5,707 nucleotides of DNA from a virus (Duplodnaviria > Heunggongvirae > Uroviricota > Caudoviricetes). The notes below the pieces were generated by a model. The model did not search any database, was not told the DNA's origin, and saw only the letters and a list, made by a program, of their open reading frames with translations. The position numbers and the translations under genes are program-made. The DNA lies in IMG/VR virus record IMGVR_UViG_2541047945_000002; one strand, given 5' to 3'. Numbering within the stretch: the stretch's first letter is position 1; each line of letters begins with the position of its first letter. Shown piece by piece: positions 1-5,707 of this stretch.

Positions 1-2
1 AA

Positions 3-53
3 GCAGAAAAAGCTTATTATGCTTCCATCGGAAACGATGATCTGGCAGCCTGA
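3..53 (+). CDS. C-terminal fragment of IS3-family transposase OrfB (5'-partial, runs off window start)
   Basis: Frame 3 translation ...[16 protein letters not shown] stop (TGA 51-53), immediately upstream of the terminal inverted repeat. Assignment from recalled IS3-family OrfB C-termini; not searched. Confidence 0.5.
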
Positions 54-70
54 GTTCACAGATAAAATAC

Positions 71-95
71 TCTCCAGGAAACCCGGGGCGGTTCA
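71..95 (+). repeat. Right terminal inverted repeat (IRR) of the IS629-like element
   Basis: Reverse complement tgaaccgccccgggtttcctggaga matches 5478-5502 tgaaccgccccgggaatcctggaga at 22 of 25 positions. Confidence 0.75.
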
Positions 96-1929
96 GTCTG
101 AGTTCAATTCCTTCCTGTTGTCGCTTGTTGTAATCGTTTATTGATGAATTTAGGACGTCCTGAGCAATTTTTTCTGCTTGAAGTACGCCCAATTGCTGCT
201 TTAATCGTGCCAGCCTTTTATTTTGAGCTCCGCCATCTCCAATGCCACCTAACCCGAAAACTCCGGGTCGGGTATTTTTTTCTATTTCATCAATTTGACG
301 GAGAACATCTGAGATTTTTTGATCAAGGGAGGCCTCACGGCCAATGTCCAGCATGGAATCCCATGCCCATTTTGCGGAGTCTGCGACAGCTTTCCATGCA
401 GTCTCAAGATAACCAAGATTTTCTTTAATCTGGTTGGTGCGCTGGATCATTGAGGATGAGTATGCTTCTGTCGCAATGCGGGCGGCCTCCTGCTGGTTCC
501 CTTCATCCTGTAGCGCCTTAATCTGGTTATAAGTCGCAATTGTCAGAAAATGGTACTGATCATTAAGTTTTGATATGGCACTGACAGGATCCTTTGCAAT
601 TTCATTGAAGTCATTAACCAGTTGTTCGGTTGATATTCCTGTTACTTCGCTCGTTTTTACTATCGCTGTCGTCACTTGCTCCAGCGAACTGCTCGCTACC
701 TTTCCCGAACGCACAAGCTGGTTTAATACTGCCGCCGCAGCGCCAGTTGTCGAATCAGCCGCATTCCCGGCACGTTGAGCTATATCGGCCAATTGCCCGC
801 TGGTTGTCCCCAACTGATTTCCGGTAAGAATAAGAGATTTATTAAATTCGTCCTGCTCCTGAGAGCCTTTATAGTAAGCCAGTCCTAAGACCCCAACGGC
901 TGCTGCGGCCAGGGTAAAAGGATTAATTAATCCCAGCACATAAGAACCTACACCTTTGATCGCCGGGCCAATCCCACCGAACATATCTTTTAGCTGGCCG
1001 CCCTGCTGCATTAACACCATAAATGGCGACTGACCAGTGGACAACCCAACAACAATATCCGTCATTTGTGCAGGCAACATGCGCATAGCAAAAGCCGTTT
1101 GTTTTGCCGACATTCCGGTTTTGCTTAATTGTGATTGAGTAACCTCAAGCTCACTCCGCATAGCACGAAGTTTTCCAGAAAGCTCCTCATACATTTCAGG
1201 AGAAAGCATCCCCTTAGCTTTTGCTTCATTGAGCTGTTTCTGTTGTTCTACCAGACGATTAAAAGCAGTTCCGACAGGATCAAGTTGAGCAATCAGACGT
1301 TGCAAAGCAACAACCTGTTCATCATGCGCTTTTGCTGCTTCTCGCTCTGCCTGAGCCTCTCCGGTAAGCTCTCGCCGTGTTTCCTGTATTTTTCGGCTAT
1401 AATTCTCAAACTGAGAACCATTTATTTTCCCGGATGCAAACGCAGCATTAAGTTCATCATGCTGTTGTTCAAGATTTCTTAGCGCCGCAGCCAGAGGGTC
1501 GATCTTGTCCAGCATTCTTTGAAAGGCCTGAGCCTGCGCTTCCTGCTGGGCGGCAGCAAGTTTTCCGGCCTTCTCGGCTTCTCTCTGCGCTTGCGCAACC
1601 CCGCTCAATTCCTCTGTGGTTTCATTAAGTTTACGGACAAGAAATTCATATTCTTCTTTATCAATAAGCCCTTTATCGAAAAATTTCTTTAATTCAGAAT
1701 AGCGTCGACCGACAGTATCAATTGCGGCACCAACTGGATCAATAGCTGCTTTTAATTTTGCGAGCGCGTTCTTCTCATCTTCTGTTGCCTTAGTCACTTT
1801 CCCTGCGCTATTTGCAGCAGTTTCCCCAGCCTGCGTCATTTTGACTAATGAGGAGGTCAGATTGTCAGCATTATTTTTCGCTCCAGTGCTATCAATAATT
1901 ATTGCGAGACGCGAGGTTTGCTCTGCCAT
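96..1929 (-). CDS. Tail tape measure protein (lambda gpH-like), N-terminal ~611 codons; reading frame runs into the IS at 95/96, so the gene is interrupted
   Basis: ATG at 1929-1927 with AGGAG 9 nt upstream. Translation [20 protein letters not shown]... contains [40 protein letters not shown] and [29 protein letters not shown], which closely resemble conserved lambda gpH blocks (recalled, not searched). Hydrophobic [33 protein letters not shown] segment and coiled-coil-like repeats are typical of tape measure proteins. No stop before the IS junction. Missing from the ORF track because the frame is open to the window edge. Confidence 0.85.
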
Positions 1930-1944
1930 TTATTAAAACTCCTG

Positions 1945-1975
1945 ACAACAAAAAACCCACCGCGAAGTGGGTTTC
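1945..1975 (-). terminator. Putative rho-independent terminator/attenuator between the chaperone genes and the tape measure gene
   Basis: Minus-strand RNA reads GAAACCCAC-TTCGCG-GTGGGTTTTTTGTTGT: a GC-rich stem (CCCAC/GTGGG, extendable to 8 bp) followed by a T6 run, about 20 nt upstream of the tape measure SD. Confidence 0.4.
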
Positions 1976-2094
1976 AGGCGACATAATAGTAGATATAGCG
2001 ATTACGAGGCCACGCAATGCTTTTCTCCAGGAGCATCATCGATTTAATTAAAGACACCATCACATCTCTGTAACAGAGTGTACGTAATTAACAA

Positions 2095-2415
2095 CTACAC
2101 ACACTGCTCCTGAAAATACTGGTCATCCAGTGCAAAGATCACTGCTTCAAATTCATCGCGCTCAATCAATACCGGATGAGTGGCTAAATATTCATTTATC
2201 TCTGTCAGAGATAAAGGCAAAGGCACCCCAGCCATTCCAGCATAACGTCGGGCACGGGATATTACCGAATAGGCGTACAACAACTCCTTAAGCACCGGGT
2301 CTATTTCTGGTTCCGGTATCGGTGGCAACCTGAGTTTTTCTCGCTTCCATCTTGCCTTTTCCCCCCTTTCTCCCCCGAACTCCGATAACCACCGCTGGGC
2401 AGCTATGGCTTTTTT
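2095..2415 (-). CDS. gpT-like extension of the tail assembly chaperone, expressed as a G-T fusion by -1 frameshift; no convincing independent start
   Basis: The -1 frame relative to the gpG-like gene is open from the slippery site (2409-2415) to TAG at 2097-2095, encoding KKAIAAQRWLSEFGGERGEKARWKREKLRLPPIPEPEIDPVLKELLYAYS...QEQCV. The ORF track's 77-aa ORF starts at a TTG inside this frame. Position between chaperone and tape measure matches lambda G/T organisation. Confidence 0.7.
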   Translation of the reverse strand, partial: KKAIAAQRWLSEFGGERGEKARWKREKLRLPPIPEPEIDPVLKELLYAYSVISRARRYAGMAGVPLPLSLTEINEYLATHPVLIERDEFEAVIFALDDQYFQEQCV

Positions 2416-2864
2416 ATCGTATCCTGCTTCTGCTGCTCTTTACCCTGGGCGATGCTGGCTGCTTCTGCAAGGATCTGCCAGTACAACTCTGGATTCTGCT
2501 TAAGCAGCGCGATCCCTCGTTCTGCCGTATATTCCAGTGCAACCTCAACACCATTAACCAGTTCACCAACCCCTTTCCAGTCTTTCAGCAGATAACGAGC
2601 GGCATTATCAATGAGTAAATCATCAACAGAATCCACCTCGGAAACCTTTGAAATATCAAACTCCTTCGTTCCGACGTGCAAACTGGCATCCATTTTCTCA
2701 ATGTGGCGACGGATTAATGCATTACGGGAGCGATACTGATCGTTATCGCTGCTTGCCACCAACAGTTTTAACCCGTCTACAGGTTTTAAGTCCTTCATTG
2801 GCGTAAACCAGCGTTCTCCACCAATGATAATTTTCTGATTAAGAATAAACATCCATAACCTCAT
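2403..2864 (-). CDS. Tail assembly chaperone (lambda gpG-like); start may be the second ATG at 2852
   Basis: 153-codon ORF directly between major tail and tape measure genes, acidic C-terminal half, ends in the slippery site. GAGG lies 6 nt upstream of the second ATG (MFILNQ...), so the true start may be 2852. Confidence 0.7.
   Translation of the reverse strand: MRLWMFILNQKIIIGGERWFTPMKDLKPVDGLKLLVASSDNDQYRSRNALIRRHIEKMDASLHVGTKEFDISKVSEVDSVDDLLIDNAARYLLKDWKGVGELVNGVEVALEYTAERGIALLKQNPELYWQILAEAASIAQGKEQQKQDTIKKP
2409..2415 (-). other. Programmed -1 ribosomal frameshift slippery heptamer A AAA AAG
   Basis: Minus-strand ...ACG ATA AAA AAG CCA TAG: an X XXY YYZ heptamer in the last codons of the gpG-like frame, with the -1 frame open for about 100 further codons. 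Confidence 0.65.
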
Positions 2865-2912
2865 TCAATGCGTCCCCCTGTAGGGCAGTACCACAGGAGG
2901 AATAACGGAAAA

Positions 2913-3875
2913 TCAACTAATCGCCTCAGCACTGGCTTTTGCGATCACGGCAGCCGGGGAATTTTTTTTTCTGGTTATCGTAGGTGCTTCATCTGCTGCG
3001 GTAATGCTCAATTGAACCTGGATAATGTCGCTATTACCCCCATCAGGCCATTCACCTGACACCTGAACCTTCGGGAAACTGAAAGTGTATGCCCCCTCTC
3101 CATTCGAAAGCGTGAAGCTGAACGGAACTGTTTCTCCAGTCAGTGTTTTACTCCAGATTTCCCACGCGGCTTTAGACCATGAAAGCGTCACCGTACCGGA
3201 CGGTGTAAAAGTAGTCGGAATATTTGCTCCTGCATAAGGCGAGCCAGTCCCGATACAACGCTGTGTCTGGAGTTTGTTATCGAACTGAATATCAAAACTG
3301 TCGATACAAAAACCGTTACCTCCGGCAACACCATTCAGGCTTACTGCTGAAACCTCCTTAAACGAATAACGTAGCTTTCCTGCACTATCCACAGGTTCGC
3401 CTTTGATAAAATTCGTATCATCGGCCTTTGATTCCCAGTCCAGTCCGGCAAAGGTTACGGTCGCTGTAATATCGCCGTCGTTAGGGATCTGCATTTTCCA
3501 TGAGCCAACCTGCGCTCCTCTGACGACAGAGGCAATTCCGACATCGGACGCATAGGTCGCCAGAGAAAATGTTATTCGCTCATTCCCCATTGTCAGAGAA
3601 TCGCCTGACCATTCCGCGCCGAAACAGGATGCAAGAAAATCATCATGTTGACCCCAGCGAAATTTGGTACCAACATCACCGCCGACATCCACAGTGCCAG
3701 GCGTCGCCCCCTGAGCCATCCGGGAGCCACCAATCTCATTATTTTCGCCTTTATTCTGGGTGGGTTTTACTCCCCAGCTTGTGCGTTTTAATAAACTCCA
3801 GTCACCACTTGCTGGCGTAGTGCCTGCAACCGTCTCCCGGATAAATGCCGAGATAACCTTTGCACCTGAACTCAC
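2913..3875 (-). CDS. Major tail tube protein (320 codons, GTG start)
   Basis: Largest ORF, sited between tail terminator-like and chaperone genes. Start is GTG (plus 3873-3875 cac) with AGGAGG 6 nt upstream. Gly/Thr/Ser-rich, beta-rich composition typical of tail tube proteins. Assignment by synteny and composition. Confidence 0.65.
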   Translation of the reverse strand: MSSGAKVISAFIRETVAGTTPASGDWSLLKRTSWGVKPTQNKGENNEIGGSRMAQGATPGTVDVGGDVGTKFRWGQHDDFLASCFGAEWSGDSLTMGNERITFSLATYASDVGIASVVRGAQVGSWKMQIPNDGDITATVTFAGLDWESKADDTNFIKGEPVDSAGKLRYSFKEVSAVSLNGVAGGNGFCIDSFDIQFDNKLQTQRCIGTGSPYAGANIPTTFTPSGTVTLSWSKAAWEIWSKTLTGETVPFSFTLSNGEGAYTFSFPKVQVSGEWPDGGNSDIIQVQLSITAADEAPTITRKKNSPAAVIAKASAEAIS

Positions 3876-3901
3876 AGGAGCCTCCTATGTCATTAATTGC
3901 G

Positions 3902-4294
3902 CTAGAGCGCGCGATATGGAATTTGAAGATTAAGCTGGAACCAGCCATTCTTTTCGCCAACGGCTATTGAGGAAACAGCCTGGTAACTGAGACGATCGTC
4001 ATCCTGAAACTCAAACAGTTCCCGCAATTTATCGGCTGTCTCAGTAATGAGTTTTGAACCAGAACCTGCGGGGACAAATAACTGAATAATGATTATCCCC
4101 GTGCGATAAACAACCGGCCCCGCGCCAATTTCATTAACTCCAGCCTGCCCGGGAATATTACTTAACCGCGCCCAGATTAACTTACCGGAAGGATCGAACG
4201 TTGGCCCGTTCGGATACAATACGTCTTTTCCATCAATAATCGTCTGTGCCGTCATTCTGGAAATAACCGTATTTCTGATTTCAGTAAACTTCAT
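3902..4294 (-). CDS. Tail terminator protein (lambda gpU-like)
   Basis: 130 codons immediately upstream of the major tail gene. N-terminus MKFTEIRNTVISRM resembles the gpU N-terminus as recalled (MKHTELRAAV...). ATGA start/stop overlap with the upstream gene. Confidence 0.55.
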   Translation of the reverse strand: MKFTEIRNTVISRMTAQTIIDGKDVLYPNGPTFDPSGKLIWARLSNIPGQAGVNEIGAGPVVYRTGIIIIQLFVPAGSGSKLITETADKLRELFEFQDDDRLSYQAVSSIAVGEKNGWFQLNLQIPYRAL

Positions 4295-4671
4295 TTGTAA
4301 GCCTGTAAAACACCATGAAAAGCGTTGGCATACACGCCAGTTGGCGCTTGTTGTGAATGACCGTTTTCAAGAGCCTCTGCATAAGGAAGGTTATTCTGGA
4401 TATAAATAACCCCGTAATTTGCAGCTTTCGAAATAACCCCGATCCCACGCTGAACAGCAATCGTACCGTTCGGATCCACGTTATCAGATATACCAAAATC
4501 GGGATGCTGTAACGACACCAGGTTGTTATTTCTGAAACGTCCGGTATCAACCGGAGCAGCAATATCAATAGCAGTAAGAATCTGCATAGCGATGTAGCGA
4601 ATCTTCAGCCCTACATCTTCCTCAATCATCCCGGCAAATATTGACGGTTCTATATCCCATGCCTTTGCCAT
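4291..4671 (-). CDS. Tail completion / head-tail joining protein (HK97 gp10-like)
   Basis: 126 codons; position and size fit the HK97 gp10 / lambda gpZ slot. TAAATG junction with the upstream gene and ATGA overlap with the downstream gene indicate translational coupling. Confidence 0.5.
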   Translation of the reverse strand: MAKAWDIEPSIFAGMIEEDVGLKIRYIAMQILTAIDIAAPVDTGRFRNNNLVSLQHPDFGISDNVDPNGTIAVQRGIGVISKAANYGVIYIQNNLPYAEALENGHSQQAPTGVYANAFHGVLQAYK

Positions 4672-5055
4672 TTACGCTCTCCTTAACTGGATAGAGTAAA
4701 CTGATGCGGAAGGATCTACACTTGCTGTAATTACCTCGTATCGTTGTAACTGCCTTGATACAGGATCATAAATCTCAATAATATGGTCGACAGCTGGTTT
4801 ATCCGTAACCTCGCATACCAGAGCGGTTAATTTAAGGTCACCATGCAAAATATTAATCCCATCAATTCTGCCCAGCTTATAACGTGTCAACACGCCTCGC
4901 CCGGTATAGATTGCGGTGGATTCGCCGCCAGTTTCCGTCACAGGATCCCAGTGCCGGTGCGTAACGTAAGAACCAGAAAAATCACTCACGGCGTCCGCTA
5001 AATCCTCATCAAAAGCAGCGGCAACCTCTGACTGAATCTCTTCACGAAGCCCCAT
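4672..5055 (-). CDS. Head-tail adaptor / head closure protein (putative)
   Basis: 127 codons; start overlaps the upstream stop (TAATG). Synteny with HK97-like head-tail joining genes; no sequence motif confidently recognised. Confidence 0.45.
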   Translation of the reverse strand: MGLREEIQSEVAAAFDEDLADAVSDFSGSYVTHRHWDPVTETGGESTAIYTGRGVLTRYKLGRIDGINILHGDLKLTALVCEVTDKPAVDHIIEIYDPVSRQLQRYEVITASVDPSASVYSIQLRRA

Positions 5056-5450
5056 TATCCCCCCCTCACAACCCTGACTTGTGAGCGACTAAGTCCGTAC
5101 GGTTTCAGCAGTGCTATCGCAAGCTGTAAATCGGGTTCAAGCAATGCAGTGCTGTTTGCTGGCAACTCAGAAAATGATTTCGATACACTGACCCCGTCAG
5201 CCGACACGGCTTTACTGATAACAACGCCAGAATCATTTTTCTGCTGAAACAACTTACCGAATGAGGCAATTCTGGCTGCATATGCTCCCGCAAGTTTTAC
5301 CTCTTCCGGAATACGGGATGGGTTAATTTTCAGGTTGAAGCCATTAAGCCAGGCATTAGCCATTAAAACAGCTTTATTTTTAGCGTTCTCACTCGTCCAG
5401 GCGTTCCCAAACGCATTATCAACGTCATCACAGGTCACGTAAGTGATCAT
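5055..5450 (-). CDS. Head-tail connector protein (gp6-like, putative)
   Basis: 131 codons; ATG at 5450-5448 with AGGAG 8 nt upstream. First gene of the head-tail joining block; N-terminal flavour of gp6-like connector proteins. Assignment mainly by position. Confidence 0.45.
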   Translation of the reverse strand: MITYVTCDDVDNAFGNAWTSENAKNKAVLMANAWLNGFNLKINPSRIPEEVKLAGAYAARIASFGKLFQQKNDSGVVISKAVSADGVSVSKSFSELPANSTALLEPDLQLAIALLKPYGLSRSQVRVVRGG

Positions 5451-5477
5451 GTGTTACTCCTGAGTTTTCCAGCCCAT

Positions 5478-5502
5478 TGAACCGCCCCGGGAATCCTGGA
5501 GA
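5478..5502 (+). repeat. Left terminal inverted repeat (IRL) of the IS629-like element
   Basis: 25-nt sequence matching the reverse complement of 71-95 at 22/25 positions. Confidence 0.8.
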
Positions 5503-5531
5503 CTAAACTTCCTGAGAAAGAGGTAAACAGG

Positions 5532-5707
5532 ATGACTAAAAATACTCGTTTTTCCCCTGAAGTCCGTCAACGGGCAGTCCGTATGGTTCTGGAAAGTCAG
5601 GGCGAATATGACTCACAATGGGCGACAATTTGTTCCATTGCTCCAAAGATTGGCTGTACGCCGGAGACTCTGCGTGTCTGGGTTCGCCAGCATGAGCGGG
5701 ATACCGG
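5532..5707 (+). CDS. IS629-like transposase OrfA, N-terminal part (3'-partial)
   Basis: ATG at 5532; 58 codons with the helix-turn-helix-containing N-terminus characteristic of IS3-family OrfA; open to the window edge. Confidence 0.85.

Follow-up and report, generated by a model that had tools for sequence, protein, structure and literature searches.

The phage segment and its genes

The window, by which we mean the whole stretch of 5,707 nucleotides analysed here, consists of a phage segment (positions 96-5477) with insertion sequence (IS) termini on either side. The segment (5,382 bp) is part of a lambdoid, non-Stx prophage that is very common in E. coli. Uninterrupted prophages match it at 99.98% identity, at least 700 complete genomes carry it, and ten deposited phage records match it at 99% or more.

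All phage genes described here are read on the minus strand. At the right margin lie the seven last codons and the stop (5454-5477) of a 58-aa phage gene that sits between the capsid and adaptor genes and that the IS interrupts after codon 52; the intact gene is present in L001, L018 and L019-L028. Next come the genes for a head-tail adaptor, Ad1 (5055-5450, 131 aa; phrog_493), a head closure protein, Hc1 (4672-5055, 127 aa; phrog_161), a tail completion or Neck1 protein (4291-4671, 126 aa; phrog_169, E 2.8e-55), a tail terminator (3902-4294, 130 aa; PF13554, phrog_179) and a tail tube protein (2913-3875, 320 aa; PF18906 Phage_tube_2, phrog_290, RefSeq 'phage tail tube protein'). A look-up of the 131-aa adaptor, a protein listed in 39,509 index blocks, returned only intact prophages and no IS-flanked context.

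The tail assembly chaperone pair (2095-2852; PF27119 Phage_YdaY, phrog_313 and phrog_1189) was resolved by frame analysis into a first frame, a YdaY-type ORF of 149 aa (2403-2852), and a -1 frame extension via a 77-aa ORF (2095-2328), with a slippery heptamer A AAA AAG at 2415-2409. The last gene is that of the tape-measure protein (96-1929; PF06791 TMP_2, phrog_24), of which codons 1-611 of 1077 are present, with 0 differences from residues 1-611 of the EC7 tape-measure protein. The IS interrupts the gene after codon 611; the reading frame stays open through the IS sequence to the contig end, giving a partial product of 643 aa.

The order of adaptor, head closure, neck, terminator, tube, chaperone with -1 frameshift and tape measure is that of a lambda-like siphovirus module, as in intact prophages. 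The sequence-only reading had called the segment a whole tail module, a description that does not hold: the segment begins at tape-measure codon 611/612 of 1077 and is devoid of distal tail genes, the homologues of M, L, K, I and J found in intact copies being missing. What it carries is the first 57% of the tape-measure gene, a G/GT-type chaperone, the tube gene and the head-tail connector genes, the last making up four of its eight genes.

IS629-type termini and their junctions

The left margin of the window (1-95, plus strand) is the right end of an IS629-type element of the IS3 family, corresponding to IS positions 1216-1310, and contains the 16 last codons and TGA of orfB (3-53) as well as the right inverted repeat (about 55-95). 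The right margin (5478-5707, plus strand) is an IS629-type left end (IS positions 1-230) that contains the left inverted repeat; orfA opens at position 5532 and is present for 58 codons, which match the Pfam HTH_Tnp_1 model. Positions 1 and 5707 are also the two ends of the contig, so that the IS sequence within the window amounts to 325 of 1310 nt (95 + 230). The -1 frameshift site that joins orfA and orfB in IS3-family elements, and the DDE transposase domain of orfB, fall beyond the contig. The terminal inverted repeat is imperfect, positions 55-95 and 5478-5518 being 78% complementary over 41 nt. The termini begin with 5'-TG, in TGAACCGCCCCGGG at 5478, and finish with CA-3', in CCCGGGGCGGTTCA ending at 95, as in the IS3 family.

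The full-length copy of L001 (E. coli FDAARGOS_1249) was taken as the reference IS because the first IS629-labelled copy fetched, in L029, is truncated. Both ends in the window match those of this one 1310-bp copy at 100% identity (7225-7319 for the right end and 6010-6239 for the left), which bears out the coordinates and the shared plus orientation given to them from the sequence alone. For the left end, identity is 99.1% to a copy labelled 'IS629 family' in RefSeq, against 94.8% to 'IS1203 family' copies. Elsewhere, copies of the same IS type are flanked by 3-bp target duplications (GAT in L001, GGG in L003 and AAG in L016), and truncated and nested forms occur in L002 and L029.

Alignment to uninterrupted prophages places the IS/phage boundaries between positions 95 and 96 and between 5477 and 5478. 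The junctions have different flanks, GTC and CAT, which an intact prophage carries at a distance of 5.4 kb; one simple insertion cannot account for both ends, which must come from two distinct IS copies or fragments. The bracketing thus agrees with the proposal: the phage segment is preceded by an IS right end and followed by an IS left end, both in the same orientation, and two elements are involved instead of one.

Neither exact junction was found in 5,426 complete E. coli genomes, and the exact junction patterns were likewise not found in GTDB species-representative genomes or JGI metagenomes. In other strains, independent IS insertions occur 2 bp and about 33 bp from the sites in the window.

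The window as a draft contig

An exact-protein look-up showed that the window is record KE702421.1 in full (5707 bp), from GCA_000461395.1, the short-read draft genome of E. coli UMEA 3609-1, a non-O157 clinical isolate. The fusion of tape measure and IS is EQZ27867.1 (643 aa, 'partial', UMEA 3609-1), which is present on two contigs only, the longest of 5707 bp. KE702421.1 remained a singleton after scaffolding of the assembly. A second version of the contig in IMG/VR (L004, 5572 bp) matches window positions 1-5572 without a mismatch; both begin at the identical base, and L004 has IS sequence at both ends, exactly 95 nt each. Since the contig is a whole record and its second version ends in 95 nt of IS on either side, we conclude that the ends of the window are assembler break points in a collapsed repeat. 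The assembler was unable to cross these multicopy repeats, which is why the contig reaches 95 and 230 nt into them. Presumably the Broad UMEA genomes are ALLPATHS-LG assemblies, for which a K of 96 would yield 95-nt overlaps.

This is the standard artefact of short-read assemblies, in which contigs break at repeats, and the window does not differ from it: its ends lie inside a multicopy IS, and many unrelated assemblies stop at the identical IS position. The 58-aa truncated orfA product was found at contig ends in many assemblies (311 index blocks); only the longest contigs of this look-up were read, and all contigs returned came from assemblies other than GCA_000461395.1. The artefact restricts what can be concluded, yet both IS/prophage junctions remain real.

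Origin of the arrangement and comparison with related strains

We consider it probable, at about 80%, that two ordinary IS629-type copies interrupt an otherwise collinear common prophage and that the contig was broken at both. One IS has its right end inside the tape-measure gene, and the other has its left end inside the 58-codon gene beside the capsid gene. Both copies, visible for 95 and 230 nt, are most likely full length (1310 bp) and derived from simple insertions. Each would have entered by a separate copy-out/paste-in transposition that duplicated 3 bp of target, GTC at one junction and CAT at the other. As each insertion would destroy a gene required for virion assembly, the prophage would be defective.

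Two simple insertions would leave outer junctions in which CTCTCTGTC is followed by the IS left end and the IS right end is followed by CATAGCCTTCC. With a collinear prophage, one neighbouring contig would be expected to end in GCATCTGCTCTCTGTC and then TGAACCGCCCCGGG, and the other to begin with CCCGGGGCGGTTCA and then CATAGCCTTCCAGTTG. The predicted outer junctions, queried with gaps of 0-8 nt, were not found in IMG/VR, and synthetic outer-junction queries of the complete E. coli genomes gave no exact match, only near and non-identical insertions.

A simple second insertion would also shorten the product of the small gene to exactly 52 aa, with the IS terminus providing the TGA stop. This exact 52-aa product was found on 17 contigs, including other genomes of the same accession series (EQZ40303.1 and EQZ44252.1). 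None of the four accessions shown for it is near EQZ27867.1, so that it need not occur in UMEA 3609-1 itself. A 401-aa ORF for the tape-measure C-terminus (54 contigs) was dropped as evidence, given that any upstream disruption of the gene would generate the same ORF.

The junctions might instead be scars of IS-mediated deletion, inversion or recombination with another IS629 copy, one or both of them, leaving the 5.4-kb piece as an orphan remnant joined to unrelated DNA, with the remainder of the prophage lost or located elsewhere. The same module is scarred in three other strains (DXMF6-3R, LR-71-1 and FDAARGOS_1249), the outer junctions were missing from IMG/VR and the complete genomes, and the contig has no scaffold link to neighbours, all of which agree with such a history. 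The occurrence of the 52-aa product within the same accession series argues against it, as does the description of IS629 copies in prophages as mostly simple insertions (PMC3271280), and we regard scars as unlikely here.

Considerably less probable is a composite transposon that took the phage genes out of the prophage and into a different locus or replicon. Tn3411/IS3411 exemplifies composite elements whose IS629-type copies are direct repeats, and the direct orientation of IS629-type ends around a cargo in the window is compatible with such a unit. Unlike Tn3411/IS3411, the window has a gene fragment as its cargo and shows its IS for 95 and 230 nt, and neither an outer target duplication nor a second context of the unit was found. 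The cargo is non-functional and offers no selectable trait, the segment is on 0 of 72,556 plasmids, and in the 5,426 complete genomes and the sampled contexts it always lies within an intact prophage. Neither junction recurs in these E. coli genomes, GTDB species representatives or JGI metagenomes. The suggested composite-transposon-like mobilisation has thus left no sign, and it is very improbable that a mobile unit has gone from its prophage and now resides elsewhere in the UMEA 3609-1 genome. If true, such a unit would have IS3-family elements moving phage structural genes between prophages.

It is scarcely credible that there is one IS copy only, with the contig being an assembly-graph loop that stands for a circle of 6.7 kb or for tandemly amplified copies of the IS and the segment. 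Right and left ends at opposite ends of the contig in the same orientation are also the pattern of a circular permutation, and both match a single IS variant at 100%. Against this stand the GTC and CAT flanks, 5.4 kb apart in the prophage, which do not fit one insertion and led us to reject a single-IS circle; a circle would further require an excision event and would be without a replication function. To our knowledge, circles of the IS3 family hold the IS alone, which counts against a circle containing a phage segment.

On the favoured reading of two simple insertions, the two copies could, like any direct repeats, recombine and delete the interval; nothing points to such a deletion in UMEA 3609-1, nor to movement of the unit. 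The sequence-only reading had anticipated, in related strains, a deletion of exactly this interval leaving a single IS. The exact product was not found in the 5,426 complete E. coli genomes. An IS-associated deletion of the same module is present in DXMF6-3R (NZ_CM139232.1). There a single 1310-bp IS1203, without target duplication, replaces 6.5 kb of the same module, with end points 69 nt from the 3' end of the tape-measure gene and at about window position 5249. A single IS of the same family thus stands in place of the tape-measure-to-adaptor genes, which resembles the predicted outcome; it is of IS1203 type, however, with 52 differences per 1310 nt from the variant in the window, and the end points differ. 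The DXMF6-3R deletion is not derived from the arrangement in the window.

Other strains show further IS activity in this region. An IS26 connects the tube gene to an rfb cluster in LR-71-1, and nested IS elements lie within the tape-measure gene of FDAARGOS_1249. The proposal that IS629-type elements repeatedly target this prophage is supported by the independent insertions across strains, and agrees with the reported location of 62% of the O157:H7 IS629 copies in prophages (PMC3271280). IS-mediated deletions have been reported as well (PMC3271280, PMC7430833). The IS629 insertions in the Sp/SpLE elements of O157:H7 Sakai share with those of the window the type of IS and the habit of landing in prophages, whereas the present host is non-O157, its prophage is a common non-Stx lambdoid one, and both insertion sites are absent from the complete genomes searched.

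The two real IS/prophage junctions represent biology that is already known, and their import beyond UMEA 3609-1 is small: a routine disabling of a prophage by IS629-type elements, together with breakage of a short-read contig at the IS. IS termini at the ends of a window that is a whole contig show flanking repeats, and not two complete copies in a collinear locus. At the population level, the connector and tail region of a common prophage has been struck repeatedly and independently by IS629/IS1203, with at least one IS-associated deletion. Such repeated insertion and deletion is consistent with the known part of these elements in prophage decay.

IS ends and their junctions with the phage segment

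The window is made up of three parts, namely an IS end, a phage segment (96-5477) and a further IS end. In local BLAST against a full 1310-bp IS3-family element of E. coli FDAARGOS_1249 (locus L001, 6010-7319), positions 1-95 corresponded to its right end (IS positions 1216-1310) and positions 5478-5707 to its left end (IS positions 1-230), both on the plus strand and at 100% identity, and the coordinates, naming and orientation of the ends proposed in the sequence-only reading were therefore right. The right end terminates in CCCGGGGCGGTTCA and the left end opens with TGAACCGCCCCGGG; the two termini form an imperfect inverted repeat of 41 nt (78% complementary). Comparison with RefSeq CDS placed the last 16 codons and TGA of orfB at 3-53, while the first 58 codons of orfA, with a Pfam HTH_Tnp_1 match, start from 5532. 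The left end was 99.1% identical to a truncated copy labelled 'IS629 family' in RefSeq (L029) and 94.8% identical to copies labelled 'IS1203 family' (L016 and L017, from strains LR-71-1 and DXMF6-3R).

The flank at junction A (95|96) reads ...GGTTCA|GTCTGAG and that at junction B (5477|5478) reads ...CCAGCCCAT|TGAACC. Both junctions are real and, in the intact prophage, they lie 5.4 kb apart with different flanks, which rules them out as two ends of one simple insertion. The segment must therefore adjoin two or more IS copies or fragments that share one orientation, as had been claimed from the sequence alone. Outer junctions were predicted from the 3-bp duplications made by this IS type in related loci (GAT in L001, GGG in L003 and AAG in L016), and were not found in IMG/VR or the complete E. 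coli genomes. Junctions A and B were not found in complete E. coli genomes, GTDB species representatives or JGI metagenomes.

At junction B, the IS interrupts a 58-codon gene, located between the capsid and adaptor genes, after codon 52. Given a CAT duplication, the outer side of this gene would have 52 codons followed by a TGA supplied by the IS, and the exact 52-aa protein was present on 17 contigs in the protein collection, with accessions that include EQZ40303.1 and EQZ44252.1 from the same series as the source. Its occurrence is an indirect and only suggestive pointer to a simple insertion at junction B, since none of the four accessions shown for it is near EQZ27867.1 of the source. The left flanks just outside the IS were alike in two unrelated insertions, CCAGCTGAT|IS (L001 5998-6009) and CCAGCCCAT|IS (window 5466-5477); the likeness is probably due to chance, since the motif was absent from ten other left flanks (L006-L015).

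Content and occurrence of the phage segment

Eight minus-strand genes lie within 96-5477, encoding the head-tail adaptor Ad1 (5055-5450), head closure Hc1 (4672-5055), Neck1/tail completion (4291-4671), tail terminator (3902-4294), tail tube (2913-3875), a YdaY-type tail assembly chaperone (2403-2852), a downstream extension ORF of the chaperone (2095-2328) and the tape measure (ATG at 1929), which is cut by the IS. Of the 1077 residues of the intact tape measure, the window encodes 1-611, all of which match strain EC7; past residue 611 the frame enters the IS and then leaves the contig. Beyond the segment, intact copies continue into tail genes M, L, K, I, J and fibre genes on one side and into capsid, scaffold, portal and terminase genes on the other. 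Because intact copies extend on both sides and the tape-measure gene is cut, the earlier description of a whole tail module was inaccurate, and the segment is instead a connector and proximal-tail fragment with a truncated tape-measure gene.

A slippery heptamer of the canonical -1 type (A AAA AAG, 2415-2409, minus strand) is located two codons ahead of the chaperone TAG, and the -1 frame from it passes through the 77-aa extension ORF (2095-2328), which would yield a fusion of the lambda G/GT type, about 250 aa long. In other strains, the RefSeq annotation of this region consists solely of 'ydaY' (119 aa) and a hypothetical protein listed separately. A terminator-like hairpin with 10 pairs, a 4-nt loop and a T run (1975-1952, minus strand) lies between the chaperone and tape-measure genes, some 20 nt ahead of the ATG of the latter; terminator-like sites were not enriched in the scan (6, against a shuffled-sequence mean of 6.0). 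Near the 3' end of the tail tube gene is a T9 run (2962-2970; A9 on the coding strand), which has 8 bases in locus L019, with a product of 309 aa versus 320 aa, and 9 in fourteen other loci.

Of 5,426 complete E. coli genomes, at least 700 carry the same 5.4 kb without interruption (identity up to 99.98%), and ten deposited phage records match it at ≥99%. Composite-transposon-like mobilisation of the IS-segment-IS unit, also put forward in the sequence-only reading, is highly improbable: the segment was on none of the 72,556 plasmids searched, it was always embedded in an intact prophage in the complete genomes and contexts sampled, and what the unit would carry is a gene fragment without function.

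The window as a contig broken in a repeat

By exact protein look-up, only two contigs carry the 643-aa tape-measure/IS fusion product. The longer, KE702421.1 (assembly GCA_000461395.1, 5707 bp, range 1-5707), is the window itself and its protein is EQZ27867.1, 'hypothetical protein G979_05013, partial [Escherichia coli UMEA 3609-1]', with EQZ32715.1 listed alongside. The IMG/VR sister contig (L004, 5572 bp) is identical to window 1-5572, with the same first base, and both of its ends hold exactly 95 nt of IS. Many unrelated assemblies likewise have contigs that terminate in the cut 58-aa form of orfA (311 index blocks). It follows that the assembler broke off inside a collapsed multicopy repeat at either end of the window, and these ends are not biological boundaries. 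Assembly with ALLPATHS-LG (K = 96), presumably used for the Broad UMEA genomes, would account for the 95-nt overhangs. Contigs of many unrelated assemblies end 229-230 nt into the IS (window 5707; position 10174/10175 in L006-L015), further than expected from k-mer length alone. The nested IS copy in strain Z1323CEC0004 begins at IS position 134, and an assembly-graph branch point near this position, common to the assemblies, may lie behind these stops.

Insertions in related strains and overall reading

Repeated IS629 targeting of this prophage, as the sequence-only reading suggested, was borne out by independent IS629/IS1203-type insertions in the module of several strains. In Z1323CEC0004, an IS right end lies 2 bp from junction A (window 95/96; L002 8489/8490); this copy is 5% divergent from the window variant and nested with a truncated copy, and such an independent IS3-family insertion may reflect a local target preference in the tape-measure gene. 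An IS1203 with an AAG duplication lies about 33 bp from junction B in LR-71-1, a strain whose tube gene is also cut by an IS26; LD91-1 has an IS copy within the tube gene, and FDAARGOS_1249 and MS 196-1 have copies within the tape-measure gene. In DXMF6-3R, a stretch of 6,485 bp (tape measure through adaptor gene), which begins 69 nt short of the tape-measure stop and reaches the counterpart of window ~5249, is replaced by one IS1203 without target duplication (L017 7786-9095), identical to the LR-71-1 copy and at a different site. The kind of IS-associated deletion anticipated for the window is thus seen in DXMF6-3R, although the end points and the IS variant are different there. These strain comparisons agree with published work on O157:H7, in which 62% of IS629 sites are reported to be in prophages or prophage-like elements and IS-mediated deletions are also reported (PMC3271280; see also PMC7430833).

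In the best-supported reading, a common lambdoid prophage of E. coli UMEA 3609-1 would have received two IS629-type copies, oriented alike, in separate insertions, one of which broke the tape-measure gene and the other the small gene adjoining the capsid gene; either insertion would disable virion building by the prophage. The short-read assembler set apart the DNA between the two copies as a contig of 5.7 kb. It is likely that both copies have full length and that the locus is collinear. The finding is real, though ordinary, and the appearance of a bracketed module owes most to the position of the assembly breaks.
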